The notes beneath the pieces are model-generated. The model was not told where the DNA came from. It ran no database searches and worked only from the letters and a program-made list of their open reading frames with translations. A DNA stretch of 64,000 nt from Deltaproteobacteria bacterium (GTDB lineage: Bacteria > Desulfobacterota > Desulfobulbia > Desulfobulbales > JAJRZW01), in the NCBI GenBank assembly GCA_024275015.1, contig JAJRZW010000001.1:706-64705 (forward strand), written 5' to 3'. Position 1 is the first letter of the stretch. Each line of letters begins with the position of its first letter. This document shows positions 8,728 through 57,318 of the stretch, piece after piece. Both the position numbers and the translations under genes were made by a program.

Positions 8728-8765
8728 GAGGGGTATTTATGAACATGTGGCAATTATCGGGGACT

Positions 8766-8902
8766 CTGGAAAATGGTCTTTTCGCCCGATCCCGGCGGGA
8801 TGAGCAAAATGAAAATGCTCATATCGCCACGGCGGGACTGCGATGTTTGATTTTGCTCATTCCCCGGCCCCGGATGAAAAGCCTGACTCTTCAAGATACC
8901 CT
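8766..8902 (+). repeat. family-C repeat copy C1
   Basis: Aligns over ~135 bp with 37991-38127 and partly with 32228-32268. Contains the ATG (8874) used by the downstream lipoprotein gene. Confidence 0.75.
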
Positions 8903-10200: not shown

Positions 10201-11907
<1,707 letters not shown>

Positions 11908-31245: not shown

Positions 31246-31995
31246 TTAAGTATTCATGTCGTTCATATAGCTTGGGCGGTGAGAGGCCGCGTCGTAGGGG
31301 ACGCGGCCTTTTTTTTCAAGCAGGGCCAAAAGTTCGTCCAGGTGTTTTTCCCGGTTCAGGCGGTCACGGCCGATTATATCAAAACGGCAATTGCAGCCGG
31401 TGAGCTGGCCCGCGCACCAGGGGCAGATCTCCACCGGGCATCCGGGCGCGTGGAACTCGTTGTCACCGGTACCGCAGACAGGGCAGAGCCTGATGTCGGT
31501 GGCCACGGGGCAATATAGCTCCAGGTGGTCGATGGTTGGGTATTTTTTTTTGAAGGCATCGTCGTCGGCAAAGGCGAAAAAGGTCAATACCTCCCTGACC
31601 GGGATTCCCTGGCTCAGGGGGCCCAGAAACTCGACTTTTTCCATGCTGACCAGATAGAGATAATTGTCTGTAAAGGTGATGGCGCAGAGGAGGAAAACAC
31701 CGTTTTTTCTCGTCAGTTCCCGGATCTCCCTGATTCCGTCTTCCCTTGCCTCGGGGAGAAAGCTGTAGAAATTGTGGAGGACGTTCATCGCTATCCGATC
31801 AGCGGCGAATTCGTGGATTAGTTCTTTCACCTCGTCACGGTGGGATTCAGGGCTGTTGTATTCGGCCAGCATCTTGGTCTCTTCGGTTATCTCTTTGATC
31901 GGGCGCATATTATCATTTCCTGTGGACTTATGGGTATCCTGAAAGATGGTCTTTTCGTCTGATGCTGCGTCATGAGCAAGACGAAGAATGCTCAT
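31246..31995 (-). CDS. hypothetical protein with C-terminal eight-cysteine cluster
   Basis: 249 aa ORF (alternative ATG at 31908). Cys cluster: CPVATDIRLCPVCGTGDNEFHAPGCPVEICPWCAGQLTGCNC. No family recognised. Confidence 0.5.
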   Translation of the reverse strand: MSILRLAHDAASDEKTIFQDTHKSTGNDNMRPIKEITEETKMLAEYNSPESHRDEVKELIHEFAADRIAMNVLHNFYSFLPEAREDGIREIRELTRKNGVFLLCAITFTDNYLYLVSMEKVEFLGPLSQGIPVREVLTFFAFADDDAFKKKYPTIDHLELYCPVATDIRLCPVCGTGDNEFHAPGCPVEICPWCAGQLTGCNCRFDIIGRDRLNREKHLDELLALLEKKGRVPYDAASHRPSYMNDMNT

Positions 31996-32032
31996 CCCGC
32001 CGGCGGGAGATGGCCTCGCTTGTAAAAGCGAT

Positions 32033-32087
32033 GCCGCTCTTTCCGGAAATCACCGAAGCCGCCTCCGCGGGGATTTGTTACTGGTCC
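32033..32087 (+). repeat. family-B repeat copy B5
   Basis: GCCGCTCTTTCCGGAAATCACCGAAGCCGCCTCCGCGGGGATTTGTTACTGG. Confidence 0.7.
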
Positions 32088-32095
32088 ATCAATTA

Positions 32096-32204
32096 TTGTT
32101 GGCCTCGCAATAAATTGCGGGCCAACGGCAATTGCACTTCTGACTTATTGAAATTACGTGGACCCGCTTCCGTTTGAGATATTTGTTACGACTTCATCTT
32201 GTTG
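32096..32204 (+). repeat. family-E repeat copy E2
   Basis: Aligns with 17845-17950 but lacks the second hairpin arm. Confidence 0.7.
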
Positions 32205-32227
32205 TTTCGCCATCCCGGAGATTATTA

Positions 32228-32268
32228 CGGATTCATCATTCCCGGGTCTCGGACGAAAATCTTCATTT
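32228..32268 (+). repeat. family-C fragment C3
   Basis: CATTCCCGGGTCTCGGACGAAAATCTTCATTTTTCAATAT matches the 3' part of C1 and C2. Confidence 0.55.
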
Positions 32269-32925
32269 TTCAATATATCCTGATATTTTTTTTATCCATT
32301 TCCGGATTTCGGCGGTCATGTCCGCGGCCTGAGTGATGGCGGTAACCACCGCGATCCTCCGGGCCCCGGCGGCCAGAAGTTCATCAAGATGAGCAAACTT
32401 TATTCCCCCCATTACCGTAAACGGTAGGTCTGATCTTTCTGACCACCCGGCGATTGCCCCGCTGCCTGAAAAATGATGCAGGCCTTTCTTGGTTGAGGTC
32501 GGGAACAGGGGGCCGATATTATAATAGGACGCCCCCCGGGTCGCGGCGCTTTGGACCTGCTCCGCCCGGTTGGCCGAGACCCCGATGATCATTTCCGGCA
32601 AAAGCCCGCGGGCGGCTTCGGCGGGGATATCGCTGTTTCCCAGGTGGACGCCGTCGGCGTCGGCGAGGATGGCGATATCGATGCGGTTGTTGACCATGAA
32701 CAGGGCTCCGGCGGCGCGGGTTTTATCGCGGAACATCATGGCCTTCTGGTAGAGCGTGCGGTCGTCGGAGACCTTGTCGCGCAGCTGGACTATTTTTGCG
32801 CCGCCGGCAAGGACCGCGTCAAGCCATTCCCGGTCACTTCTTCCGGCACATAATGGCTCACAGGATACCGGGTAAACCGTGACCTGGTCGGTGAAGATCT
32901 GCATCCGGCGGCTGAGGTTGTTCAT
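32263..32925 (-). CDS. thiE: thiamine-phosphate synthase
   Basis: 220 aa with IVQLRDK, DGVHLG and GGI motifs typical of ThiE. Confidence 0.9.
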   Translation of the reverse strand: MNNLSRRMQIFTDQVTVYPVSCEPLCAGRSDREWLDAVLAGGAKIVQLRDKVSDDRTLYQKAMMFRDKTRAAGALFMVNNRIDIAILADADGVHLGNSDIPAEAARGLLPEMIIGVSANRAEQVQSAATRGASYYNIGPLFPTSTKKGLHHFSGSGAIAGWSERSDLPFTVMGGIKFAHLDELLAAGARRIAVVTAITQAADMTAEIRKWIKKISGYIEK

Positions 32926-35264: not shown

Positions 35265-35477
35265 TTATCAGACCGTTGAAAAAGCCGTCCATGGCTTTTC
35301 AGCCATAGTTGCTGAATCCGTGACGGCTTAGTGGCAACCGAGTATATATTTATCTGAATTCATGCGTTTTTTACCGGAATTTCACTCCGGCGGAAATTTT
35401 ACCCCGCCGCCCTTCGGGCGTCCGGGAACGGCGCGTCCATGCGCCGCGTACAGTCCGTTTTTCAACGGACTGTTATA
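35265..35477 (+). mobile_element. family-A MITE, long variant A5
   Basis: Family-A termini with a divergent interior. Flanked by TTAT/TTAT. The right flank supplies the TAA stop of the response-regulator gene. Confidence 0.7.
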
Positions 35478-36138
35478 CATCGGTGATTCCGTGTTTTATC
35501 GCAAACTTGACCAGGGCGGGAATATTAGGGGTTCCGAGTTTCTTCATCAACCGACTGCGATAGGTCTCGACGGTTTTGGCCGAGATGAAGAGGATTCCGG
35601 CGATCTCGGTGCTTGATTTTCCCTATACCACCAGTTGAACGATCTCCCGTTCCCGGGGGCTTAATGACTTCAACGGCCCGTTTTTTTTCAGCCGCATTCC
35701 CTTGGAAAGCAACTCATCGGCCATGGTCCCGGATATCCTCCGGGCCAGGTATCTTTTTCCCCGGGCCACGGTTTTTATGGCCAGAACCACTTCCTGACCG
35801 GCTGATTCTTTGAGGAGATATCCCGTTGCCCCGGCGTTGAGGGCCTGGTGGATATATTCACTGGTGGCGTGCATGGACAGAATGATCACCCGGCATTCCG
35901 GGCAGGCGGTGACGATTTGCAGGGTCGCTTCGATACCGTTCATCTCCGGCATGGCGATATCAACCAGGGCCACATCGGGGCCATGCTCCCTGACCATCCT
36001 GACCGCCTCCCGGCCGTTGGCGGCCTCGCCGACAACCGTGATTCCGCCGGCGGCGAGAAGGCTTTTTAATCCTTCCCGGACAATTCGGTGGTCATCGGCG
36101 AGAAGGATCCTGATATTTTTCGTTTCATACCTCGACAC
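35473..36138 (-). pseudogene. NarL/FixJ-type response regulator interrupted by an in-frame TAG
   Basis: Receiver domain (RILLADDH, DIAMPEMNG), then [43 protein letters not shown]. The stop at 35623-35625 sits where LuxR HTH domains usually have E/Q. Confidence 0.75.
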
Positions 36139-37411
36139 TTATACTTGTTCCCTCCCCGGGGGCCGAGTTCAGTTCCATCCTGCCGCCGATGGCGGTTATC
36201 CTCTCCCGCATGGCAATTATGCCCAAGCCGGAAGCCTCGTCCCCGGAGGTTTCCCGGGTAAAGCCGATACCATCGTCGTTTATCGTCATCCTGGTGCAAT
36301 CCTGTCGGTGTTCGATTCTTACGGTGACGCTGTGGGCCTTGGCGTGTTTGACCACGTTGGTCAACGCCTCCTGGGCGATACGGAACAGGGGCGTTTCCAC
36401 ATTTTCCGTAAGCCTCAGGCCCGGCTCATCGTCGATGATATCTATTTTTAATCCGGTCCGCATGGCTATTTTGTCGCTATAACAGCGAATCGCCGCCGCA
36501 AGTCCGTGGTCGTCGAGGTTGCTTGGTCGCAGTTCCGACATGATGTCACGGATCTCCTCGGTGCTTTCCTCAATGAGACGGAAGGAGTCGGCGAAGAAGG
36601 TTTCCGCCTCTCCTGAGTCATCATGTGTGAACCGATTTTTGATGATGTTGAGGTTGAGGTTGAGGGCGCTCAGCTTCTGCCCGACCCGGTCGTGCAGTTC
36701 GATGGCGATTTTTCGTTTTGCCGACTCTTCAAGATTGGCAAGGCGGGCGGAAAATATCTTCAGTTTCCTCTCGGCCTTTTTCTCCAGGACAAGACTGCGG
36801 CCGGCCCTGAACGCGAGGAGAATGATCAGAACCCCCAGGATCATGGAGATCAGGTAGGTGGCCATGTTTGAGTGGGCGGCAAGGCTGCCAAGCTCCTTTT
36901 TGCTTTTTGTGATGTCGTAATATATCTCAAAAACCCCGATTACCCTGCCACTTCTTATGATCGGGACATAGGTCTCGACCAGGTCGAATTTGTGTAGATC
37001 GCCGTAACGGTTCAGCCCCTCTTTCCGGCTGAGCAGGGTATGGGTTTCGCCGGTCCGGATGATATCTGGGAAGAACGTCTTGCTGGTGTTGCCGCCGATC
37101 TCGGTATGATAGGTGGAATAGACGATTACTCAGTCGGGGGAGTAGACCTTGATTTTCCACAGGCCGATCAGCTTTTTGGTATTTTCGATTTCGCGGATGA
37201 AGTCCGCGGGGAGGTTGTCTTTTGACAGATTGCTGACCTCGATGAGATGAAATGATATCTGGTGGGCGATATTTTCAACCACTTTTTCCGTTTCCCGGAC
37301 GATAAATCCATTATACAGGGGGTTGATTACAAAGATGGAGTAAAGGGGGAGAGTAATGATCGCGACAAAGGCGATAACGACAAAAAGGCGGAGGATTTTC
37401 AGTCTGGGCAC
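36125..37411 (-). pseudogene. HisKA_3/HATPase sensor histidine kinase interrupted by an in-frame TGA
   Basis: Same frame across the stop: TM1, a sensor domain (KVYSPD-TGA-VIVYSTYHTEIGG...VETYVPIIRSGRVIGVFEIYYDIT), TM2, the ELHDRVGQ H-box, and an ATPase domain. Stop at 37130-37132. GTG start at 37411 after GGAG. Confidence 0.7.
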
Positions 37412-37446
37412 ACCCGGCTCCGTTTCGGAATTAAAGAGAAGTAACT

Positions 37447-37575
37447 TCTCAGATCGTTGAAGAAAGCGTCCATGGCTTTTAAACCCCGGTTGACCAAAAC
37501 TTTGTTTCGGCCAGCCTCTCAATTTCGCTGGCGCGTCCCTGCGCCGCACACAGTTCGTTTTCCAACGGACTGTCA
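37447..37575 (+). mobile_element. family-A MITE, shortened copy A6
   Basis: Family-A termini with an internal deletion. Overlaps the ORF-track N-terminal extension of the kinase. Confidence 0.65.
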
Positions 37576-37938
37576 TGATTGTCCACGAATATCTTCCTAT
37601 GGATATTAATGCAATGATTTAGTCCATTTCTTTAAGCCGCGAGTGTCTGGGAACGGGTCAGGTGTAAGTGGGGAACTATGTTGATTATCCTTCGGTATAT
37701 CAATGGGTTGTCCGTCATGCAACCGGCCTGTTTCCTGGAATCCTTCAGGGCGTCAGCATGAGCCCCGACAACTTTAGGCAGACAAACAACAACGTTATAA
37801 CAATTGGTTGGGTTGCTTCCCGCCGCTATCGTCATGGATCCAGGCATTTATCAAAGACTCCCTACAGATAAAACAAACAGACCTGGTTAATAATAAAAGC
37901 GCATACATCATGCATGGAAAATATTTTCCTTTGTTTTC

Positions 37939-37982: not shown

Positions 37983-37990
37983 AAGGGTAT

Positions 37991-38127
37991 CTTGAAAATG
38001 GCCTTTTCGCCCGATCCCGGCGTCATGAGCAAAATGAAAAATGCTCACATATTCTCGATATGCTACGCTTTTTAATTTTGCTTATTCCTTGGCCTCGGAC
38101 GAAAATCCTCATTTTTCAAGATACCCT
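37991..38127 (+). repeat. family-C repeat copy C2
   Basis: Aligns end to end with 8766-8902. Confidence 0.75.
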
Positions 38128-38282
38128 TAACAGAGTGTTGAAAAAGCCGTCCTGTCTTTTTCAACCGTCGGTTGGATAAAACAAGTTTCATCCAACCTCT
38201 CGATTTCACCGGGTTTTTTAAACCGGTGAAATCGGCGGCGCGTCCATGCGTCGTAACAGCCCGTTTTTCAACGGGCTGTTAC
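38127..38282 (+). mobile_element. family-A MITE copy A7
   Basis: Full copy with flanks TTAA/TTAC. Confidence 0.75.
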
Positions 38283-38387
38283 GGCAAATCCCGTGGTAAT
38301 TTCATTTCCAATTATATATATTGCGGACGCAGACAGAGTTTTTCTTGCCTTTCGGCTTTTTGCCGCAGGTCTTTCCCGGGTTTTGAT

Positions 38388-38822
38388 ATGCGCCAGGACG
38401 AAGTTCCACAGGATGAGGGTATTGCCGAGGGGTTGGTCGAGGTCACCTACGCGGTTGATGATGACGGGCATTATACCCAGGTCGGCAGCGCCGGATGGGA
38501 ACCCAAGAATATCTCCAATCATCAGGCATGGGAAGAGATCGTGAAAAAGGTCGAGGCGGTCCGGGCCGAAGTCGAGGCCGGGCGGGTATCGCCGTTGGCC
38601 TTTCACATGGCGAGAAACCAGATGGAGGCGGGGCTTCTGGCAAGCTATATGGGGCTTTTCCGCTGGCAGGTGCGCCGTCACCTTAAACCGGCGGTATTCG
38701 CCCGGCTTGAGTCCGAACTCCTTGAACGCTATGCCGCGATGCTCAGGACCACGGTGGCGGCCCTGGGCGACATTAATCTTGCCCCGGAGATGAAGATTCC
38801 CGGCAGCCGCGGGGGGGCATGA
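38388..38822 (+). CDS. hypothetical protein (possible HTH-like), first gene of a three-gene cluster
   Basis: 144 aa from MRQDEVPQDEG. Its stop overlaps the next start (ATGA). The ORF-track N-terminus lies in MITE A7. Confidence 0.5.
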   Translation: MRQDEVPQDEGIAEGLVEVTYAVDDDGHYTQVGSAGWEPKNISNHQAWEEIVKKVEAVRAEVEAGRVSPLAFHMARNQMEAGLLASYMGLFRWQVRRHLKPAVFARLESELLERYAAMLRTTVAALGDINLAPEMKIPGSRGGA

Positions 38823-39820
38823 TGGAGATTGACTTTACCCACCGCCAGTCGGCCCACTGCGAGAACGGGGTTACCGCCAACCTCGTCAGTCATTACGGCA
38901 TTTCCATGAGTGAGCCCCTGGCGTTTGGTATCGGCGGCGGACTTTTTTTTGGCTATATCCCCTTCATGCGTTTAAACGGCCTGCCCCTTACCACTTTCAG
39001 GGCCATAACCGGGCTTATCTTTAAGCGGGTAACCCGGGAACTCGGGATAAAGACCGTGAGCCGCAGATTCAGGAGCCGGGCGGAGTCGATGCGGGTTCTC
39101 GACGAGGTTCTTGGTCGCGGGATTCCGGTGGGGCTGCAGACCGGGGCCTGGTGGCTGCCCTATTTCCCCGAGGCCTATCGTTTTCATTTCAACATGCATA
39201 ACCTGGTGGTGTACGGCAAGCGGGGCGACGATTATCTTATCAGCGACCCGGTGTTCCCGGAGCCGGTGGTCTGTGACGGCGCCGACCTCGCCCGGGCAAG
39301 GTTTACCAAGGGAACCCTGGCGCCAAAGGGGCGGATGTACTACCTCGAACATGTCCCGGAAAATGTCGACTGCAGGGACCCGGTGCGCAAGGGTATCAAG
39401 ACCGTTTGCCGGGCGATGCTCAAAAGCTCTCTGCCCATTATCGGCGTTTCCGGTATCCGTTTTCTTGCCCGCCGGCTTGAACGGTGGCCGCGGAAACTCG
39501 GTGATGACCGGGCCCTGCTTCATCTCGGGCAGTTGATCCGGATGCAGGAGGAGATCGGCACCGGCGGCGCCGGGTTCCGTTTTATCTACGCCGCCTTTTT
39601 AGAGGAGGCGGCCGGGGTGTTCGGCGAGGATTACTTCCTCGAGTTGTCGAAGCGTCTCACTGCTATCGGTGACCGCTGGCGTGAATTTGCGGTCCGTGCG
39701 GCGAGAAATTGCAAGGGCCGCGCCAGCGACGATGACAGCTATCCGGCGATGGCGGCTATTTTAATGGATTGCGCCGAGCGGGAGGAAAAACTCTATCGTG
39801 ATCTGTTGCAGACTGTCTGA
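38819..39820 (+). CDS. BtrH_N / DUF4872 domain protein (papain-like fold family)
   Basis: 333 aa. The N-terminal QSAHCENGVTANL motif and overall layout match BtrH N-terminal plus DUF4872 proteins. Confidence 0.65.
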   Translation: MMEIDFTHRQSAHCENGVTANLVSHYGISMSEPLAFGIGGGLFFGYIPFMRLNGLPLTTFRAITGLIFKRVTRELGIKTVSRRFRSRAESMRVLDEVLGRGIPVGLQTGAWWLPYFPEAYRFHFNMHNLVVYGKRGDDYLISDPVFPEPVVCDGADLARARFTKGTLAPKGRMYYLEHVPENVDCRDPVRKGIKTVCRAMLKSSLPIIGVSGIRFLARRLERWPRKLGDDRALLHLGQLIRMQEEIGTGGAGFRFIYAAFLEEAAGVFGEDYFLELSKRLTAIGDRWREFAVRAARNCKGRASDDDSYPAMAAILMDCAEREEKLYRDLLQTV

Positions 39821-39850
39821 GTCGGGGATTTTAATCTTAAAGACCTTAAC

Positions 39851-41185
39851 ATGAAAATTCTCCTTGTAAGTCCTGCCTGGCACGACAAGATGAACGAGAA
39901 TATCCGGGTTTTGGCCCTGCCGCCGCTTAATCTCGCCACCATTGCCGCCTGTACCCCGGAAGGGCACGAGGTGGAAATTTTCGACGAGGCCTTTGACGAG
40001 ATTGATTACGCCGTTGATGTCGATCTGGTCGGAATTACCTGCATGACCCCGCTTGCGCCACGGGCCTATGATATCGCGGCTGGATTCCGCCAACGGGGGG
40101 TGCCGGTGGTCATAGGCGGCATTCATTCTTCGATGTTGCCGGATGAGGCCGCGGCTCACGCCGACTGCGTGGTTGTGGGCGAGGCCGAGGGGATCTGGCC
40201 CCAGGTAGTCAACGACTGTGCCGCCGGGAAGATGAAAAAGCTCTATCAGGCGGAGAAAAGGCCGGACATCACTTTTTTGAAACAACCGCGCCGTGATCTC
40301 CTGACCAATAAATATTTTGTTCAGACGGTGCAGACCTCGCGCGGATGTCCCAATAACTGCAAATTCTGTTCAGTCACCCGGTTTAACGGTGGTCAGTACC
40401 GTCTTCGCGATATCGATAACGTCATCGACGAAATCCGTTCGATTGCCGACAAGCGTCTGTTCATCATCGACGACAATATCATCGGCTCGGGCAATAACTG
40501 CATTGACCGCGCCTTTGTTTTTTTTGAGCGTTTGGCCGAGTGTAAAAAAGAGTGGGGCGGCCAGACCTGTCTCAATATAGTCGAGCACGACGGATTGCTG
40601 GCCGCGGCGCGCAAGAGCGGCGCCCGTGCTTTTTTAATCGGGTTTGAGTCCATCGACGATGCCGCACTCGGCGGTTTTGACAAGAAGATCAACATGCGTC
40701 CGACCACCCGTAATTTTCGCGAGGCGATAAAAAAAATTCACGACCACGGTATAGCTGTTGTCGGCGGCTTTATCTTTGGTACCGACAGTGACAACCCTGA
40801 TACCTTTCGCCGGACCCTCGATTTTATTATTGAGACCGGAGTTGACGCGGTGCAGCTTTCGATTCAGACCCCGCTGCCCGGCACCGAACTTTATCGGCAA
40901 TTGCAGCAGGACGGGCGGTTGCTCCTCACCGATTACCCTGCCGACTGGGAGGCCTACAATATTTTTGAGCCGGTTTTTCAGCCATTGAACCAAAGCCCGG
41001 AAGAACTTTACCGCAACCTGATGGCTGCCTACCGTGAGGTCTCGGCCCCTTGGCCGTCGTTTATCCGCGGGCTTAAGACCTTGATGGCGACAAGGAGTAT
41101 GTTCGCCACTGGTATTTCTTTTTTCTGGAACTACGACTCCTGTAAGACCATTTCCAAGATAACCCGGCCCCGGATTTACACTTGA
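39851..41185 (+). CDS. B12-binding-domain radical SAM protein (class B)
   Basis: 444 aa with an N-terminal cobalamin-binding-like Rossmann region (MKILLVSPAW...VVIGGIH) and the CPNNCKFC CxxxCxxC motif. Confidence 0.88.
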   Translation: MKILLVSPAWHDKMNENIRVLALPPLNLATIAACTPEGHEVEIFDEAFDEIDYAVDVDLVGITCMTPLAPRAYDIAAGFRQRGVPVVIGGIHSSMLPDEAAAHADCVVVGEAEGIWPQVVNDCAAGKMKKLYQAEKRPDITFLKQPRRDLLTNKYFVQTVQTSRGCPNNCKFCSVTRFNGGQYRLRDIDNVIDEIRSIADKRLFIIDDNIIGSGNNCIDRAFVFFERLAECKKEWGGQTCLNIVEHDGLLAAARKSGARAFLIGFESIDDAALGGFDKKINMRPTTRNFREAIKKIHDHGIAVVGGFIFGTDSDNPDTFRRTLDFIIETGVDAVQLSIQTPLPGTELYRQLQQDGRLLLTDYPADWEAYNIFEPVFQPLNQSPEELYRNLMAAYREVSAPWPSFIRGLKTLMATRSMFATGISFFWNYDSCKTISKITRPRIYT

Positions 41186-41275: not shown

Positions 41276-41340
41276 TCCTCAGTATGTATAACTTATTGAT
41301 GATTTCGCAAAAATCCCTTCTTTTCGTTTTTTCAAGACAC

Positions 41341-41496
41341 CTATCAGAGTGTTGAAAAAGCCGTCCTCTCTTTTTCAACCGCCGGTTGGATAAAACAAGT
41401 TTCATCCAACCTCTCGATTTCACCGTGTTTTTCAAACCGGTGAAATCGGCGGCGCGTCCATGCGCCGCAACCAGCCCGTTTTTCAACGGGCTGCTA
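41341..41496 (+). mobile_element. family-A MITE copy A8
   Basis: Full copy flanked by CTAT/CTAT. The right flank supplies the glnS TAG stop on the minus strand. Confidence 0.8.
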
Positions 41497-43197
41497 TGGT
41501 TGCTGGCCTCGTAACAAGTCCCCGCGGAGGCGTCTTCGGCTGTTCCATGTGTCGCGAAGAGTCACGGTGCGGTTGAATACCAGTCGCTTGCGGGTTGAGT
41601 CGCCTGAATCAAGACAGAAATAACCGTTGCGTTCAAACTGGTAGTTTTCGCCCGGCCTTGCCGCGGCCAGCGACGGTTCAAGCCGGGAGTCGGTCATCAC
41701 CGTGAGGGAATCGGGATTGACGCACCCCAGGAAATCGCCGTCCCCCTCGGGATCGGGCCGGGTGAAGAGGCGGTCGTAGAGCCTGACCTCGGCGGGGACC
41801 GCGTGCCGGGCTGAGACCCAGTGGATGGTCCCCTTGACCTTGCGTCCGTCCGGGGCGTTGCCACCGCGGGTTTCGGGGTCGTAAGAGCAACGTAATTCTA
41901 CGACCACCCCGTTGTCGTCCTTTATCACCTCCTCACAGGTGATAAAATAGGCGTAGCGCAGTCTCACCTCGCGGCCGGGGGCGAGGCGTTTGAATTTTTT
42001 CACCGGCTCTTCCATGAAATCGCCCCGTTCAATGTATATCTCGCGGGAAAAGGGGATTTTTCTCTCTCCCATCTCCGGCCGCTTGGGATGGTTGGCGGCG
42101 GGCAGGTCTTCTTCCAGTTCCTCCGGGTAATTGCTGATTACCACCTTCAGAGGATCAAGCACCCCTAAGACCCGGGGGGCGTTTTCGTTAAGGTCGTCCC
42201 GCAGGCAATGCTCGAGGAGTTCGACCTCAACGGTTGAATCTTTTCTGGCAACGCCGATGCGGTAGCAGAAGTAACGGATCGCCGCCGGGGTGTAGCCGCG
42301 ACGGCGGATACCGGAAAGGGTGGGCATCCGCGGGTCGTCCCATCCTGAGACTACGTTCTCGTTGACCAGCTTGAGGAGTTTACGCTTGCTGACCACGGTA
42401 TAGCTGAGGTTGAGGCGGGCGAATTCTATCTGCCGCGGGTGGCATGAAATGGTGATATGGTCGAGGACCCAGTCGTATAAGGGACGGTGGTATTCAAATT
42501 CGAGGGTGCAGAGGGAATGGGTGATGCCCTCGAGGGCGTCTGAGATCGGATGGGTGAAATCGTACATCGGATAGACACACCAGGCGTCGCCTGTGCGGGG
42601 ATGGCTGGTGTGCATGATCCGGTAGATAACGGGATCGCGCAGATTTAGATTGCCGTTTTTCATGTCTATCTTCGCCCGCAGCACTTTTGAACCGTCCGGA
42701 AACTCCCCGGCCCGCATCCTCTCGAAGAGGTCGAGATTTTCCTCCGCCGATCGTTCGCGGAACGGGCTTTCCTTTCCCGGTTCGGTGAGGGTGCCGCGGT
42801 GTTCGCGGATCTCGTCGGCAGTGAGCTCGCAGACATATGCCAGCCCTTTTTTTATCAGTTCTTCGGCGAAACCATAGAGCTTTTCGAAATAGTCCGAGGC
42901 GTGAAAGAGGTGGTCGCCCCAGTCGAAACCGAGCCATTTGATATCCGCCTTGATCGCGTCGACGTATTCCTGCTCCTCCTTGCTTGGGTTGGTGTCGTCA
43001 AAGCGCAGGTGGACCCGGGTATGGGGGTATCCGGCAGCGATGCCGAAGTTGAGGCAGATGGATTTGGCATGGCCGATATGGAGATAGCCGTTGGGCTCGG
43101 GGGGGAAACGGGTGACGATTTCCGCGTGTCGACCGTTTTCAAGGTCGGAGTCGATGATCTTGCGGATAAAGTCGCGGGGACGGTCGTTGTTTGTCAT
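41494..43197 (-). CDS. glnS: glutamine--tRNA ligase
   Basis: 567 aa with [17 protein letters not shown] (HIGH) and a KMSKS-region equivalent. GlnRS-like throughout except the last ~15 aa. Confidence 0.95.
41507..41546 (-). repeat. family-B repeat copy B6, inside the glnS 3' end
   Basis: CCTCGTAACAAGTCCCCGCGGAGGCGTCTTCGGCTGTTCC. Translated as the GlnRS C-terminal tail. Confidence 0.7.
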
Positions 43198-52568: not shown

Positions 52569-54056
52569 ATGGCCATGGCAGGTAAATCCGTCACAGCTAT
52601 TCTCGTTATTTTTTTTCTCTTCCCTCCGCTTGCGGCAATCGCCGGTGCTTCCGGGGTTCGGGAGGCGGTATGGGCCGGGGCCTTTTATCCTGCCGATTAC
52701 AGGGAACTGAAGAGGGAGGTGGCCGGGGATATCGCCTACGGGGCTGCGCGGCTGCGCCGGAGGGGGGTGTCGGCAAGGCCCCTGATTATCATTATTCCCC
52801 ATGCCGGTTACCGTTATTCCGGCCGCATTGCCGGGGTCGCCGCCGCCGCGGTTGCCCGGCGCGGATATAAACGGGTTATCATTATCGCCCCCGACCACCG
52901 GGTCGGTTTCTCCGGGGTGGCGACCATGGCCCGGGGCGCCTACCGCACTCCCCTGGGGCTGGTTTCCGTTGATCCGGAGGCGGCGGTATTGATGTCCCGG
53001 GGGAGATTATTTCATCGGGTTGCCGCTTCGGACAACAGCGAGCACGCGGTTGAGGTGGTTCTGCCCTTTCTCCAGTCGGCCCTGGGCGGATTTTCCCTGA
53101 TCCCTCTGGTTTCCTCCAGGGTTGCGCCGCAGACGCTGGCGGACGCCGTTGTTCCCCTCCTTTCCCCGGAAACCCTGCTGGTTATTTCGAGTGATTTTTC
53201 CCATTATCTCCCCTATGACCGGGCCGTGGCCCATGACCAGGCCACCATAAGGGCCATCCTTAACCTTGATCTGGACGTTTTTCAGGGGATCAAAAATAGT
53301 GCCTGCGGCCGTACCGGGATCGCGGCGGCGATAATCGTCGCCCGGCGACTCGGTCTTGCTCCGGAACTTCTGGCCCGGGCCAACAGCGGTGATGCCACCG
53401 CCGACCGCGGCCGGGTGGTGGGTTACGTTGCCATGGGGTTTTATAAAAATGAAAAAACAGCGACGGAGAGAAAAATGCCGGAACTCAGTAACGAACAGGG
53501 CCGGGCGCTGTTGCTTCTGGCGCGGCGTACTATCCTGAAAAAGTTCGGCCGGGATCCCGGCGTCGAAGACGGGCCGGAGGCCGTCGTCCTCGACGATCCG
53601 GTTTTTTCAACCCGGCGGGGGGTATTTGTCACCCTTAACCGCCGCGGGCGTCTGCGTGGATGTATCGGCAGCCTTGCCGGGGTTGAGAGTATTGTCGCGG
53701 GGGTGAGGAGAAACGCCGTTAATGCCGCCTTTAATGATCCACGTTTTAAACCCCTGAGCGCGGAGGAACTTGCGGATCTGGAGATCGAGGTCAGTATTCT
53801 CACCGAGGCTGAGCCGCTGGCCTTTAACGACAGCGACGAGCTGATAAGAAAATTGCGGCCCGGCATCGATGGGGTCATTATTCGCGACGGCATCCACAGC
53901 GCTACTTTTCTTCCCCAGGTGTGGGAGCAGATTCCGGTCCCGGCTGATTTTCTGACCCATCTCTGCCGCAAGGCCGGAATGGCGGGGAACCGCTGGCAGC
54001 GTCCCGGACTCACCGTCCTTGCTTATCAGGTGCAGTATTTTGCCGAGGGCGGATGA
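52569..54056 (+). CDS. AmmeMemoRadiSam system fusion protein: MEMO1-like (protein B) + AMMECR1 (protein A), with signal-like N-terminus
   Basis: N-terminal half has FYPADYRELK, IIIPHAGYRYSG and SEHAVEVVLPFLQ (MEMO). C-terminal half has GVFVTLNRRGRLRGCIGS and ATFLPQVWEQ (AMMECR1). First 29 aa are hydrophobic, ending AIAGASG. Confidence 0.85.
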   Translation: MAMAGKSVTAILVIFFLFPPLAAIAGASGVREAVWAGAFYPADYRELKREVAGDIAYGAARLRRRGVSARPLIIIIPHAGYRYSGRIAGVAAAAVARRGYKRVIIIAPDHRVGFSGVATMARGAYRTPLGLVSVDPEAAVLMSRGRLFHRVAASDNSEHAVEVVLPFLQSALGGFSLIPLVSSRVAPQTLADAVVPLLSPETLLVISSDFSHYLPYDRAVAHDQATIRAILNLDLDVFQGIKNSACGRTGIAAAIIVARRLGLAPELLARANSGDATADRGRVVGYVAMGFYKNEKTATERKMPELSNEQGRALLLLARRTILKKFGRDPGVEDGPEAVVLDDPVFSTRRGVFVTLNRRGRLRGCIGSLAGVESIVAGVRRNAVNAAFNDPRFKPLSAEELADLEIEVSILTEAEPLAFNDSDELIRKLRPGIDGVIIRDGIHSATFLPQVWEQIPVPADFLTHLCRKAGMAGNRWQRPGLTVLAYQVQYFAEGG

Positions 54057-56136
54057 GGCGCTGCGGGTAAAGCGGCTCCTGTTCGCCGCCGGTGCCGCCA
54101 CCGTATTGGTGCAGTTGGTGATGGTGCGGGAGCTTTTGGTCCGTTTCAGTGGCAATGAATTCGTCATCGCGGTCATCTTTTTTATCTGGCTTGTCAGTGG
54201 CGCTATCGGTGCCTTTGCCGCCCCCCGCCTTGGCCGTTTTTTTTCCGCCACCGGTGAGCGTTTATGGTGGCTTGCCCTCCTGCTTGTTATTCTGCCGCAG
54301 CTTATGGTCGGCGCTGTTGCCATCCTCGCCCCCATCCTGACCCTGCCCGGGGTATCAGCGGGATTTTACCCCACCCTGTTTTTTGTTATTCTCCTTATCA
54401 GTCCCTATTGTTTTGCCATCGGGGTTTTTTTCCCCTGGGCCCTTGCCCGGTACGCCCCGCGCGTGAGCGGCAGGGGCGCGGCCCGGATCTATCTTGCCGA
54501 TACCGGCGGCGGGGTAATCGCCTCTTTGCTGTTTGTCCTGTTGCTGGTACGTTTTTTTTCTTCATTCACGGTGGTGGTCGGGGGGGGCTTTGTTTTTTTT
54601 CTGGCGGCCCTGCCTTTTATGCCGCAACATAGGCGTGCCCGGGCGGCAGGCCTGTTTTTCCTCTGTCTGGCGATTGCGGCGGCGGCATTACTGCGTTTTT
54701 TTGCTCCATCTCCCTATAATGGCAGGATCGTAAGCGCGCGCGATTCCCGTTTCGGCCGGATCGAGGTGGTGAAAAAGGCGGAACAGAGCACGGTGATGAC
54801 AAACGGCCGGCCGGTATTCATCAGTCAGACGCCGGCCCTGGCCGAGGAATTGGTGCATTACCCCGCCTCCCTGGTTGCCTCGCCCCGGCGGATGTTGTTT
54901 ATCGGCGCGGTGGCGGGTATTTTTGTCGAGGCGGCGAAATACCGTCCCCGGACCCTTGATTATCTTGAGATTGATCCGGACTTAAGCCGCGTTCTCCTGG
55001 CCGGGGGGCTGGTTGTTCCGGTATCCGGCCTGAGGGTGATTAACCGTGATCCGCGTCTTTTCCTGGCCGGGAGCGGGGATAAATACGATATGATCGTCAT
55101 CGCCCGCGGTGAGCCTGAGACCTTTGGCGATAACCGTCTTTTCACCCGGGAGTTCATGGCCCTGGTCCGAGCTCACCTCGCTCCCGGCGGGGTCTTTGCC
55201 TTCGGGGTTGACGGTTTTGAAAATTACCTTGGCCCCGCGTCCCGGCAGCGGTTTGCCTGTTATTATGCCACCATGAGATCGGTTTTTCCCGAGGTAGCGA
55301 TGATCCCAGGCCGGAAAACGATTTTTATCGGTTCATCCCGTCGGCCGCGGCTGGACATCCCCGGGATTCTCCGATCCCGGGGGATCGTTACCAGTTATCT
55401 GGCGCCGTTTTTCCGGGGTGAGGTTACTCCGGAGCGTCTGCGGTACCTTGAGGACGCGGTCCGGGTCCGGAACGCGTCGCTGAATCTTGATCTGCACCCC
55501 GCCATTGTCCGCATGGTCCTTGATCACTGGTTTGAAAGGTTTGCCGGCTCGCCTTTCTGGTTTGCGGTTCCGGTCTGCGTGTTTTTTCTCTTGCTTCTCC
55601 TCCGCGCCTCTCCCGGAGAGTATACCCTGCTCACCGCCGGTTTTACCTCGATGGCGGTGGAGACTGTGGCGGTGTTCGCCTTTGCCGTTTTTCATGGTTA
55701 TATTTTTGAACAAATCGGTATTTTGATCTCCCTTGCCCTGGCCGGGATTTTTGTCGGCCTCCGCTTTGGCGCCGGAGTCCGGGATAAAGAGAGCCGGGGG
55801 GTGATCCTGGCCGCTGACGCGGCGATTATCGTCCTTGCCCTTTTATGGGCCGTAAGCCTTGGCCGTTTTAATGACGGGATAACCACGGTTATTATTCTGT
55901 TTATGACTTTTACCCTTTCACTTGCCTCCGGGTTGCAGTTCGGCCCGGCAATAAATCTCAGCCCTGACGGGCCGAATGGGGCGGCCGGGGCCTTTGGCGC
56001 CGATCTCGCCGGGGCCGGGGCCGGGGTGCTTCTCATCGCCCTTGTGATCCTGCCCGGTTATGGCCTGGCGGCGGCGGTGGCGTCAATCGCGATAATAAAG
56101 GCCACAGGTATGGTCCGGGTTTTTTCCGCGGGGTGA
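54019..56136 (+). CDS. polytopic membrane protein with central spermidine-synthase-like (AdoMet-dependent) domain
   Basis: 705 aa with many TM segments at both ends. The middle region (FGRIEVVKK...MLFIGAVAGI...YLEIDPDL...YDMIVIA...FTREF) resembles aminopropyltransferases. Overlaps the upstream gene; start uncertain (54019 or 54040). Confidence 0.72.
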   Translation: MLIRCSILPRADEALRVKRLLFAAGAATVLVQLVMVRELLVRFSGNEFVIAVIFFIWLVSGAIGAFAAPRLGRFFSATGERLWWLALLLVILPQLMVGAVAILAPILTLPGVSAGFYPTLFFVILLISPYCFAIGVFFPWALARYAPRVSGRGAARIYLADTGGGVIASLLFVLLLVRFFSSFTVVVGGGFVFFLAALPFMPQHRRARAAGLFFLCLAIAAAALLRFFAPSPYNGRIVSARDSRFGRIEVVKKAEQSTVMTNGRPVFISQTPALAEELVHYPASLVASPRRMLFIGAVAGIFVEAAKYRPRTLDYLEIDPDLSRVLLAGGLVVPVSGLRVINRDPRLFLAGSGDKYDMIVIARGEPETFGDNRLFTREFMALVRAHLAPGGVFAFGVDGFENYLGPASRQRFACYYATMRSVFPEVAMIPGRKTIFIGSSRRPRLDIPGILRSRGIVTSYLAPFFRGEVTPERLRYLEDAVRVRNASLNLDLHPAIVRMVLDHWFERFAGSPFWFAVPVCVFFLLLLLRASPGEYTLLTAGFTSMAVETVAVFAFAVFHGYIFEQIGILISLALAGIFVGLRFGAGVRDKESRGVILAADAAIIVLALLWAVSLGRFNDGITTVIILFMTFTLSLASGLQFGPAINLSPDGPNGAAGAFGADLAGAGAGVLLIALVILPGYGLAAAVASIAIIKATGMVRVFSAG

Positions 56137-56139
56137 AAA

Positions 56140-57318
56140 ATGGCTGTTGACCGGCGCAGGTTCATAAAGGGCTCAGCCCTCATCGTCTCGTCCTTGGCCC
56201 TTGGCGGCGGGGTAATCTGGCTTGGCAATAACCGCGGTCGTTTCAGTCGGTTGAGCGATATCACCGGCCATGTTTTTCGCGGTCAGGCCCCGGATACCCC
56301 CGGCCCTTTCGCCCGCGAGGCGATGTTTTATGAAAAGACACCCGGTGCCACGGTGGTCTGCGCTCATTGCCGTCATGCCTGCCGCCTTGCTGCCGGTGAC
56401 ATGGGCCTCTGTCGCAATCGCGCCAATATAGGCGGGGTTCTCTATTCCCTGGCGTACGGTAACCCCTGTTCTTTCAACCTTGATCCGGTGGAGAAAAAGC
56501 CCCTGTTTCATTATCGTCCCGGGACCAGCGCTTTTTCCATCGCCACTGCCGGCTGTAATTTTCGCTGCCTCAACTGTCAGAACTGGGAAATATCACAGAA
56601 GCGGCCCGACGAGGTACGGCATCGGGAGATGTTCCCGGCGGCGGTGGTTGAAGAGGCGCGGAAGAGGGGGGCGGCGTCCATCGCCTATACCTATTCCGAG
56701 CCGGCGACCTTCTACGAGTATATGCTTGACACCGCCGCTCTGGCAAAAGAACGGGGGATCGGTGGTCTGTTCATCTCCAACGGCTATCTTAACCCTGAAC
56801 CCCTTGTCGGTCTCTGCCGGGTCATTACCGCCGCCAATATCAATCTCAAGGCCTTTGACGAGACCACCTACCGCAGCCTTGACGGCGGTGGGCTTGCCCC
56901 GGTGCTTGAGACCCTCAGGATTATCCACCGTGAAGGGGTGCATCTTGAGGTTACCAGCCTGGTGATTCCCGGTTATACCGACAAGGTTGAAGACCTGAAA
57001 AGGATGTGCGCCTGGATTCTCGCCAACCTCGGCCCTGACGTGCCGCTGCATTTTCTCCGTTTCTTTCCCCGTTATCGTCTTGACCGTCTTGAGGCTACCC
57101 CGGTTTCCACCATCGAGTCATTCCGCGAAATCGCCATGGCCCAGGGTATTCATTACGCCTATGTCGGTAATGCGGGGATCACTCCCGGGGCCGATACCTT
57201 CTGCCATAATTGCGGCAAATTGCTGATTGAGAGAAGGGGGTACCTCCTGCCGGTGATGGACGTCATTGCCGGCCACTGCAAATACTGCCGCGCCGTGATT
57301 CCCGGGTTATGGGGATGA
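56140..57318 (+). CDS. AmmeMemoRadiSam system radical SAM enzyme with N-terminal twin-arginine motif
   Basis: MAVDRRRFIKGSALIVSSLALGGG, then an auxiliary Cys cluster (CAHCRHAC...LC), then CNFRCLNCQNW (CxxxCxxC). Starts 4 nt after the upstream stop. Confidence 0.85.
   Translation: MAVDRRRFIKGSALIVSSLALGGGVIWLGNNRGRFSRLSDITGHVFRGQAPDTPGPFAREAMFYEKTPGATVVCAHCRHACRLAAGDMGLCRNRANIGGVLYSLAYGNPCSFNLDPVEKKPLFHYRPGTSAFSIATAGCNFRCLNCQNWEISQKRPDEVRHREMFPAAVVEEARKRGAASIAYTYSEPATFYEYMLDTAALAKERGIGGLFISNGYLNPEPLVGLCRVITAANINLKAFDETTYRSLDGGGLAPVLETLRIIHREGVHLEVTSLVIPGYTDKVEDLKRMCAWILANLGPDVPLHFLRFFPRYRLDRLEATPVSTIESFREIAMAQGIHYAYVGNAGITPGADTFCHNCGKLLIERRGYLLPVMDVIAGHCKYCRAVIPGLWG

Follow-up and report, generated by a model that had tools for sequence, protein, structure and literature searches.

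Three tightly linked genes in a 64-kb stretch of DNA from a Desulfobulbales-like anaerobe (64,000 nucleotides, hereafter the window) encode a small protein, a BtrH_N/DUF4872 protein and a radical SAM enzyme, and raise the question of which pathway these proteins jointly serve. The analysis establishes the family membership of the proteins, the conservation of catalytic residues and the linkage of the genes across genomes. The trio is probably a DarG-DarH-rSAM-A module that serves a lipid-pigment pathway of the dialkylresorcinol (DAR) type, akin to those of flexirubin and arcuflavin, and it is separated from the genes for the core.

Locus organization

The features of the locus, all on the plus strand, are as follows.

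38121..38284, + strand: upstream copy of a dispersed ~160-nt four-hairpin repeat (nhmmer E = 9.9e-52); not part of the system
38388..38822, + strand: gene 1, darG, 144 aa, DarG-family protein
38819..39820, + strand: gene 2, darH, 333 aa, BtrH_N and DUF4872 domains
39851..41185, + strand: gene 3, rSAM-A, 444 aa, radical SAM protein with an N-terminal B12-binding-type domain
41334..41500, + strand: downstream copy of this dispersed repeat, lying between rSAM-A and glnS (nhmmer E = 8e-54); not part of the system

The coordinates, strand and spacing of the genes are those given in a preliminary description of this DNA, and the tight operon structure proposed there was also seen. The genes darG and darH are translationally coupled through an ATGA overlap (GGGGCATGATGGAG), and a 30-nt spacer separates darH from rSAM-A. 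The ATG at 38388, rather than the upstream TTG at 38172, was taken as the start of darG because the NCBIfam match of the protein begins at residue 1. Housekeeping genes surround the trio (HflKC, ThiE, citrate synthase, GlnS, GltX, a UvrD-like helicase, FolC, PFK, BioA, GlyS, DnaJ, PurA, CydAB and a Cus efflux system). Searches with Rfam around the trio returned no riboswitch, including the cobalamin riboswitch, and no known RNA; promoter and terminator scans gave signals not above those of shuffled controls, and PADLOC gave no meaningful match to a defense system.

Homologues of DarA, DarB, KS, CLF and ApeP number zero in the window (tblastn for DarB), and rSAM-B, a second B12-type radical SAM protein of related loci, has no match there either. 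The DarI/DarJ ABC transporter is not located 3' of darH, where its place is taken by rSAM-A. Since the window is without DarA, DarB or a ketosynthase, the DAR core genes are either elsewhere in the genome or absent, and we assume from relatives that the core pathway is present. The locus is also devoid of an ACP gene, whereas ACP genes are present in related clusters. The carrier protein that the preliminary description did not see, and the ketosynthases, are expected elsewhere, as in relatives.

DarG and DarH belong to DAR families

In favor of the DAR reading, the products of genes 1 and 2 exceed curated NCBIfam cutoffs, those of DarG_fam and the DarH equivalog, respectively. A Pfam run returned the families previously claimed for the locus, namely BtrH_N, DUF4872, B12-binding and Radical_SAM. 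DarH matched BtrH_N (155 bits, 1.3e-45) and DUF4872 (190 bits, 2.7e-56), and scored 464.1 bits against the NCBIfam equivalog NF053550 DarH_acyl (cutoff 300). In an alignment of 10 DarH orthologues, H13-C14, the FHFNxHN motif (H127) and the ISDP motif (D143) are invariant. BtrH and CtaG perform Cys-His-Asp transacylation from carrier-protein thioesters (PMC7183216), and by analogy with CtaG, Cys14, His127 and Asp143 form a candidate triad in DarH. The papain-fold protein is predicted to be a carrier-protein-dependent transacylase. A sequence search of the PDB found no relative of DarH.

DarG matched NCBIfam NF053536 DarG_fam over residues 1-129 with 150.5 bits (cutoff 70), while its score against the narrower flexirubin_DarG equivalog (143 bits) was under the cutoff of 170; there was no Pfam match. 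Homologues of the protein are numerous (282 found, 30 aligned), with conservation from Met1 and along the whole length. An AlphaFold2 model (pLDDT 82, and >90 for residues 50-130) predicts a small N-terminal β-hairpin region, a long helix and a C-terminal XRE-like helix-turn-helix (HTH) domain. Foldseek matched the latter to the HTH-like domain of HppE, 434 Cro and SinR (rmsd 1.6-2.7 Å over ~60 residues), with probabilities of 0.9-1.0 but weak E-values (0.06 or worse), and a PDB sequence search with DarG found nothing. In the window, DarG immediately precedes DarH on the same strand, as it does in 73 of the 75 loci with upstream sequence among 80 metagenomic DarH loci, and DarG-DarH is an invariant gene pair of flexirubin/arcuflavin-type DAR clusters.

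The literature search found no experiment on the function of DarG or DarH, no paper pairing the rSAM-A family with BtrH_N/DUF4872 proteins, and none describing a pairing of aryl-polyene/DAR genes with a radical SAM enzyme. The preliminary description knew of no characterized pathway combining the two larger proteins; this stands for the radical SAM pairing, but darG and darH are not orphans, as they are DAR genes in NCBIfam.

rSAM-A represents an unnamed radical SAM family

In Pfam, rSAM-A matched B12-binding (PF02310, 2e-14, 53.9 bits, gathering threshold 32.1) and Radical_SAM (2.4e-20). The cysteines of the CxxxCxxC motif (C166/C170/C173) are all three invariant, and the B12-binding domain holds a single invariant cysteine (C64), making a MiaB-type auxiliary cluster unlikely. 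No NCBIfam model scored above its cutoff: HpnJ, HpnR and BchE were best with ~92-97 bits versus 480-650, and across the HpnR, HpnJ, BchE, MgmA and ladderane-type models the best scores were 87-97 bits versus cutoffs of 360-650. The alignment to the hopanoid C-3 methylase HpnR spans residues 1-389 of 444. The best 120 homologues (clusters) are 59-100% identical to rSAM-A and ~445 aa long. Judged by its sequence, the protein belongs to an unnamed, tightly conserved radical SAM family, which is well conserved yet without a curated NCBIfam model. Radical SAM homologues at 39-50% identity, from Dehalococcoidia, Spirochaetota and Bacteroidales, are found in unrelated contexts and were left out of functional inference.

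A PDB sequence search with rSAM-A returned distant radical SAM cores only. With the AlphaFold2 model (pLDDT 78), the nearest structures were AprD4, MgmA, TsrM, CysS and TokK, and the top match was AprD4 (E = 5e-18, TM 0.71), a non-methylating diol dehydratase whose B12-like domain, to our knowledge, binds no cobalamin. The enzyme could accordingly be AprD4- or BchE-like instead of a cobalamin-dependent methylase, and catalyze dehydration, dehydrogenation, C-C cyclization or cross-linking on a DAR/polyene lipid. The presence of the non-methylases HpnJ and BchE and of a 'ladderane-type lipid biosynthesis' radical SAM model among the best NCBIfam scores points the same way, as does the ordinary UbiE-like methyltransferase that adjoins rSAM-A in two related loci (L025, L051). 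Set against this are the B12-binding score, which is above the gathering threshold, and the other close structures (MgmA, TsrM, CysS and TokK), which are cobalamin methylases. Most characterized class-B radical SAM enzymes are methylases, and the up to three B12-type radical SAM enzymes per DAR cluster in anaerobes resemble multi-methylation pathways. A non-methylating rSAM-A is regarded as rather unlikely.

Gene linkage across genomes

Loci encoding rSAM-A orthologues (identity ≥55%, n = 46) contain DarH in 20 cases and aryl-polyene or DarA/DarB genes in 4 more, while the other 22 have no nearby DAR or aryl-polyene gene. The complete ordered trio is found in at least eight Desulfobacterota loci (L001, L005, L006, L009, L010, L012, L013 and L042), and is interrupted by contig ends in L007, L011 and L088. 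The three genes appear in this order in so many genomes that their linkage far exceeds what chance would give, and the co-conservation on which the preliminary description had depended is borne out.

Several relatives place the trio genes within larger DAR clusters. In L085 (GCA_003358065.1), the trio closes an operon of five genes with the order rSAM-B-DarB-DarG-DarH-rSAM-A, which adjoins aryl-polyene genes and is divergent from ApeI-like, ApeP-like, KR, LolA and 4HBT genes, and the Gallionellaceae loci L022, L027 and L029 have the order rSAM-A-KS-CLF-ApeP-KR-ACP-KS-x-DarA-DarB-DarG-DarH. The rSAM-A gene of L051 resides within an arcuflavin-like cluster (UbiE-like MT, deacetylase, MMPL, LolA, acyltransferase, AMP-ligase, ACP and DarA/DarB). 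DarB is present in the related loci L008, L022 and L085. The 80 metagenomic DarH loci frequently have DarA-DarB or rSAM-B-DarB as neighbors, and 55 of them carry the ABC pair 3' of DarH; rSAM-A adjoins DarH in 0 of the 80. The gene for rSAM-B lies directly upstream of DarB, in the usual place of DarA: rSAM-B was found in 15 loci, DarA in 21 and both in 0.

The same data bear on the possibility that DarG and DarH were recruited away from DAR chemistry, so that the trio would be a self-contained three-gene pathway acting on another substrate, such as a common membrane lipid or some other metabolite bound to an acyl carrier. The trio is solitary, amid unrelated genes, in the complete-trio loci listed above and in the window, which has neither a DarB nor a KS gene; at least eight genomes have a lone trio and lack DarB inside 10 kb. 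DarG-DarH is without its usual partner, the ABC transporter, and the 22 of 46 rSAM-A loci unlinked to DAR genes fit such independence. However, the 464-bit score of DarH is well clear of the equivalog cutoff of 300, and the rSAM-A-linked DarH proteins form one clade that includes those of L085 and L008, which have DarB and rSAM-B in the same operon. Members of the same orders also commonly carry DarB with rSAM-B, in many cases at another locus (e.g., L086 of Desulfotalea psychrophila), and split DAR/polyene loci are documented in Azoarcus (PMC3949708). A stand-alone pathway on a non-DAR substrate is unlikely given these findings.

Flanking repeats

The repeats on either side of the trio had suggested an accessory, cassette-like character in the preliminary description. 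The repeats are real: positions 38123-38268 and 41337-41482 form direct repeats of 146 nt that are 90% identical and 3214 nt apart. They are not distinctive, as a profile search with the element gave 13-14 sites in 64 kb, and copies of the same repeat likewise bracket the neighboring GlnS-GltX operon and the two-component genes. Because the element is dispersed and brackets neighboring genes too, being flanked by it is about what chance would give in this genome, and the repeats around the trio belong to an ordinary genome-wide dispersed family. A mobile or recently acquired cassette would agree with the bracketing direct repeats, the position of the trio amid housekeeping genes and the differing neighborhoods of the trio between families. 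In the nearest relative, L088 (radical SAM protein 82% identical), DarH-rSAM nevertheless remains a few genes from GlnS-GltX, which argues that the trio is not a cassette. The GC content of the three genes (0.54-0.59) is inside the range of the window, and the ORFs around the trio that were scanned with family libraries gave no integrase or transposase match. The cassette reading was rejected on the dispersed repeats and the kept synteny, and we consider it very improbable.

Rejected likewise, and the least credible of the readings, is a RiPP-like system. In it, a peptidase of the C39/BtrH type would work with a B12 radical SAM maturase on a peptide, and gene 1 would supply the precursor or a recognition element. 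This would agree with the kinship of BtrH_N to C39 leader peptidases and with the frequent presence of B12 radical SAM methylases in RiPP clusters, but gene 1 encodes a 144-aa protein that is conserved over its full length and confidently folded in the model, the leader upstream of the trio holds no plausible short precursor-like ORF in the ORF list (the search called for in the preliminary description, which had left room for a peptide substrate), no PADLOC or RiPP family match rose above noise, and the recurrent neighbors are ketosynthase, DarB, ACP and aryl-polyene genes rather than peptide-pathway genes.

A model for the DarG-DarH-rSAM-A module

Taking the trio as a DAR module, a DarB-type ketosynthase, presumably encoded outside the window in this genome, would condense two fatty-acyl thioesters into a cyclohexanedione/resorcinol core. 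In Desulfobacterota relatives, DarB appears to be paired with rSAM-B instead of the aromatase DarA. A carrier-protein thioester may donate an aryl-polyene or fatty acyl group to Cys14 of DarH, and the enzyme would then transfer this group onward; the most plausible acceptor is a phenolic OH on the DAR. DarG, as an XRE-HTH-like partner of DarH, could be an adaptor subunit or an autoregulator. With a radical derived from [4Fe-4S]/SAM, and probably with the help of cobalamin, rSAM-A would modify an unactivated carbon in either the DAR or the acyl chain, most likely by C-methylation. The preliminary description was right to propose a role in natural-product or lipid biosynthesis with a modified lipid as a possible product.

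A broader and more tentative proposal, possible though somewhat doubtful, is that the DAR pathway of anaerobes has been rebuilt around B12-type radical SAM enzymes. Here, rSAM-B would stand in for DarA as another route from the DarB product to the ring, rSAM-A would add methyls or C-C links on the resorcinol/polyene lipid, and lineages of sulfate reducers and iron oxidizers would make a hitherto unseen class of membrane lipids or pigments derived from DAR.

The gene clusters for DAR and aryl-polyene pigments rank with the most widespread biosynthetic types in bacteria, and the studied producers known to us are all aerobes. The modules described here occur in anaerobic and microaerophilic lineages, including Desulfobulbales, Desulfuromonadales, Gallionellaceae and Rhodocyclales, with B12-type radical SAM enzymes as fixed partners. 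The DAR pathway and the DarG and DarH families are already known, while the attached rSAM-A family is uncharacterized. Both rSAM-A and rSAM-B are candidates that can be tested for new radical chemistry with alkylresorcinol lipids as substrates, and compact operons of the L085 type are suited to heterologous expression.

Comparison with known systems

The radical SAM enzymes HpnR, MgmA/QCMT, TsrM, CysS, TokK and AprD4 have an N-terminal Rossmann B12-type domain and a CxxxCxxC core, as does rSAM-A; the likeness lies in the predicted structure (TM 0.6-0.7), whereas the sequences are no more than 15-20% identical. DarH belongs to the same BtrH_N fold family as BtrH (butirosin) and CtaG (closthioamide), whose N-terminal catalytic cysteine with His and Asp partners (Cys11 in CtaG) has its candidate counterpart in Cys14. 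The donors of BtrH and CtaG are carrier-protein thioesters, as proposed for DarH. The two enzymes form amides on amine acceptors, whereas the DarH reaction is presumed to be ester-forming, and DUF4872 is an extra domain of DarH.

In Azoarcus sp. BH72, which has the gene set for arcuflavin (a xanthomonadin-DAR hybrid), the same pair, there called darD/darE and consisting of a conserved-hypothetical and a BtrH-like gene, adjoins darB/darA, and the arc/dar pathway is spread over several loci (PMC3949708). No radical SAM gene is listed for these clusters, and the term is absent from that paper; the same type of gene set (MT, deacetylase, MMPL exporter, LolA, acyltransferase, AMP-ligase and ACP) also houses relatives of the window rSAM.

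The names DarG and DarH come from the flexirubin DAR sub-cluster darA-darB-darG-darH-darI-darJ of Chitinophaga and Flavobacterium (PMC12968099). In Chitinophaga pinensis and Flavobacterium johnsoniae, the cluster darA-darB-darG-darH-darI-darJ-darC-darD-darE links DarG-DarH to ketosynthase/ACP-based lipid-pigment synthesis. Compared with this aerobic Bacteroidota system, the locus of the anaerobic, Desulfobacterota-like host is without DarA, DarB, ABC transporter, ACP and KS, and the position after DarH is held by a B12-type radical SAM gene, not by the ABC pair. Nevertheless, the two systems have the DarG and DarH families in common, and in both DarG lies directly upstream of DarH.

Identity of the three genes

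ORF calling placed the three genes of the preliminary description at the same coordinates, and the domain families proposed there for genes 2 and 3 were recovered with Pfam:

38388-38822, + strand, gene 1, DarG family, 144-aa ORF
38819-39820, + strand, gene 2, DarH, 333-aa ORF
39851-41185, + strand, gene 3, rSAM-A (our name for this family of B12-type radical SAM enzymes), 444-aa ORF

The stop of gene 1 overlaps the start of gene 2 (…GGGGCATGATGGAG…), and a 30-nt spacer precedes gene 3. Pfam identified BtrH_N and DUF4872 in gene 2, B12-binding and Radical_SAM domains in gene 3, and gave no match for gene 1. In NCBIfam, gene 1 scored as a DarG-family dialkylresorcinol (DAR) biosynthesis protein (150.5 bits, cutoff 70) and gene 2 as the equivalog 'BtrH-related acyltransferase DarH' (464 bits, cutoff 300); judged by their sequences, both are members of known families. 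No NCBIfam model exceeded its cutoff for gene 3, the best (HpnJ, HpnR and BchE) reaching ~92-97 bits against cutoffs of 480-650. The letters G and H derive from the flexirubin DAR sub-cluster of Chitinophaga pinensis and Flavobacterium johnsoniae, which comprises darA, darB, darG (hypothetical), darH (BtrH N-terminal domain), darI/J (ABC transporter), darC (ACP) and darD (KS) (PMC12968099). In Azoarcus BH72, a matching 'conserved hypothetical + BtrH-like' pair, named darD/darE, adjoins darB/darA (PMC3949708). Neither the flexirubin nor the Azoarcus paper reports a functional test of the pair (PMC12968099, PMC3949708).

Genomic context of rSAM-A and DarH

An rSAM-A alignment was scanned against one genome per species, giving 80 loci. 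These, and further loci retrieved through exact-protein look-ups, were compared by tblastn and by clustering of their ORFs. Among the 46 loci counted (rSAM ≥55% identical to that of the window), DarH was by far the commonest neighbour, being present in 20; a further 4 had aryl-polyene (KS/CLF/ApeP/KR) or DarA/DarB genes without DarH, and 22 had none of these. The complete, ordered DarG-DarH-rSAM-A trio occurs in Desulfobulbales, Desulfuromonadales and other Desulfobacterota MAGs (loci L001, L005, L006, L009, L010, L012, L013 and L042); in L007, L011 and L088 it is cut short, in each case solely by the end of a contig. In L085 (GCA_003358065.1), a single operon encodes rSAM-B (432 aa; a second B12-type family), DarB (382), DarG (147), DarH (342) and rSAM-A (446), divergent from genes for a 4HBT thioesterase and ApeI-like, LolA, ApeP-like and KR proteins; its gene order shows the pathway context to which the trio probably belongs. 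The order in L008 is rSAM-A-rSAM-B-DarB-DarG-DarH, and in L003 rSAM-A adjoins DarH-DarG-DarB-DarA together with a third rSAM. In Gallionellaceae, Sideroxydans and related betaproteobacteria (L022, L027, L029), rSAM-A comes first, followed by KS-CLF-ApeP-KR-ACP-KS-x-DarA-DarB-DarG-DarH, with DarB, DarG and DarH confirmed by NCBIfam. In L051, a UbiE-like methyltransferase gene stands on one side of rSAM-A; on the other are deacetylase, MMPL, LolA, lipid-A-type acyltransferase, AMP-ligase and ACP genes, and DarA/DarB follow downstream. The arcuflavin clusters of Azoarcus have been described with this same gene set. Rhodocyclales (among them Dechloromonas, Zoogloeaceae and Rhodocyclaceae) are the source of several 'orphan' rSAM-A loci; split polyene/DAR clusters are known from Azoarcus and Dechloromonas aromatica, both Rhodocyclales (PMC3949708).

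Viewed from DarH, the trio is a minority arrangement, since among 80 metagenomic loci found by DarH alignment the usual downstream partner was an ABC ATPase/permease pair (55/80) and rSAM-A was beside DarH in none. Of the 75 loci with upstream sequence, 73 had DarG as the gene immediately before DarH. A neighbour-joining tree of 95 DarH sequences, built without bootstrap values, contains one clade of 12 proteins with rSAM-A following or adjacent (the window, L001, L005, L006, L009-L013, L042, L008 and L085), adjoining clades linked to ABC transporters and rSAM-B. The placement of the window's DarH with the DarB-linked L008 and L085 argues that it remains in DAR chemistry and was probably not recruited elsewhere.

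Queries for DarA, DarB, KS, CLF, ApeP, KR and rSAM-B returned only the trio itself by tblastn in the 64-kb window. The orders of the trio hosts are rich in DarB homologues (Desulfurivibrionaceae, Desulfobulbaceae, Desulforhopalus, Desulfotalea, Desulfuromonas and Geoalkalibacter), and these can lie at a locus of their own, as the rSAM-B-DarB pair does in Desulfotalea psychrophila; a split arrangement, with the DAR core genes apart from the trio, is thus plausible.

Predicted roles of the proteins

The rSAM-A family is very tight, the best 120 database clusters all being ~445 aa and 59-100% identical, with named sources including Desulfurivibrionaceae, Syntrophus, Desulfuromonas, and Deltaproteobacteria and Gammaproteobacteria MAGs. 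The radical SAM motif CxxxCxxC is present, and the N-terminal domain is of the B12 type; a single invariant Cys in that domain makes a MiaB-like auxiliary cluster unlikely. The structural model (pLDDT 78) is closest to AprD4 (TM 0.71) and then to the cobalamin methylases MgmA, TsrM, CysS and TokK. Our tentative first choice is that rSAM-A C-methylates an unactivated carbon of the DAR or acyl chain; the main alternative is a non-methylating radical reaction.

An alignment of 10 DarH orthologues revealed invariant H13-C14, an FHFNxHN motif (H127) and ISDP (D143). A papain Cys-His-Asp/Asn triad is common to BtrH-family enzymes, and in BtrH and CtaG the acyl group of a carrier-protein thioester is transferred by way of a Cys-bound intermediate, the catalytic residue of CtaG being Cys11 (PMC7183216, PMC10318531). 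By analogy, DarH would move an ACP-bound acyl or aryl-polyenoyl group to an acceptor. In flexirubin and arcuflavin an aryl-polyene acid is esterified with a DAR, and the darABC cluster of Pseudomonas, whose product is free DAR, is not known to contain the DarG-DarH pair; the acceptor would thus most plausibly be a phenolic OH of the DAR.

DarG is conserved from Met1 on in a homologue alignment. The invariable pairing of DarG with DarH suggests that the two proteins act as stoichiometric partners; DarG may instead be a regulator. In its AlphaFold2 model (pLDDT 82; >90 at residues 50-130), a five-helix bundle comes after a long helix. Foldseek matches to this bundle include the HppE HTH-like domain as well as the Cro, SinR and XRE repressors (rmsd 1.6-2.7 Å over ~60 residues, probability 0.9-1.0, no E-value <0.06).

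rSAM-B and further radical SAM families

rSAM-B proteins (431-462 aa) are 57-65% identical within their family and only ~27% identical to rSAM-A. Upstream sequence could be read for 39 DarB genes; their immediate upstream neighbour was DarA in 21 (L003, L022, L027, L029, L051, L124 and others), rSAM-B in 15 (L008, L026, L085, L086, L087, L093, L099, L106-L108, L111, L112, L118, L123, L170), neither in 3 and both in none. DarA is the aromatase that converts the carboxy-cyclohexanedione made by DarB into the resorcinol (PMC6836626). This role, combined with the strict alternation, suggests that rSAM-B may be a non-orthologous replacement of DarA in anaerobes (Desulfobacterota). DAR clusters of anaerobes also contain rSAM-C, a B12-type family of 482-488 aa (L003:15665-17131, L107:1788-3236, L111:1876-3324; also L100, L121 and L126), and, immediately before it, a further B12-type family of 445-447 aa (L107:431-1768, L111:510-1853), so that some clusters encode three B12-type radical SAM enzymes.

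Repeats and position of the trio

All scanned neighbours of the trio are housekeeping or unrelated genes: HflK/HflC, ThiE, citrate synthase and a two-component pair upstream; GlyS, DnaJ, PurA, CydAB and a Cus-type efflux system farther upstream; and GlnS, GltX, a UvrD-like helicase, FolC, PFK, AmmeMemoRadiSam genes and BioA downstream. The two-component system (35400-37576, - strand) is interrupted by in-frame stops. In the LuxR/NarL-type response regulator, TAG 35623-35625 lies within the HTH and the frame runs on (…QLVV*GKSSTEIAGILFISAKTVETYRSRL…); TGA 37130-37132 splits the histidine kinase (36125-36865) from its N-terminal sensor part (ORF 37130-37576). These genes are either decaying pseudogenes or assembly errors. 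The AmmeMemoRadiSam genes (52569-57318) encode a fused A+B protein (52569-54056) and a radical SAM partner (56140-57318), separated by a 705-aa ORF (54019-56136) whose sole match, a weak one, is to a polyamine aminopropyltransferase model. In the 567-aa adenylosuccinate synthetase ORF (10201-11904, - strand), the Pfam domain begins at residue 139. The true start probably lies downstream of the listed one, which falls in the repeat-rich spacer 11604-11899.

The repeats said to bound the trio are real (38123-38268 and 41337-41482, 90% identical). They are copies of a ~160-nt intergenic element with four hairpins (alignment A3), at least two subfamilies and no Rfam family, which a profile search located, full or partial and on both strands, at 13-14 sites in the window:

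5715, 9495, 11604(-), 17566, 28941(-), 35258, 37439, 38121, 41334, 44700, 44996(-), 45609(-), 51716, 61741(-)

The GlnS-GltX operon (sites 41334, 44700) and the two-component genes (35258, 37439) are likewise bracketed. Other short repeat families accompany the element, e.g. 37984-38127 versus 8759-8902 and 31932-32281. In L088, the closest relative with context (rSAM 82% identical), DarH-rSAM is followed by three signalling genes and then GlnS-GltX, an order indicating that the position of the trio is inherited. The cassette reading was rejected on the dispersed repeats, this inherited position, the unremarkable GC content of the trio and the lack of a mobility gene among the ORFs scanned around it.

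Comparison with known systems

The pathway assignment makes most of the trio finding ordinary. Among the papers searched, none linked radical SAM enzymes to DAR/aryl-polyene clusters or DUF4872 proteins, and the conserved B12-type rSAM partners of DAR modules in anaerobes are an unreported, testable lead. Compared with a complete dar cluster, the window locus is without DarA, DarB, the ABC transporter and the ACP. By its domains, rSAM-A is a predicted class-B radical SAM enzyme, but one that stands outside all the named class-B subfamilies.
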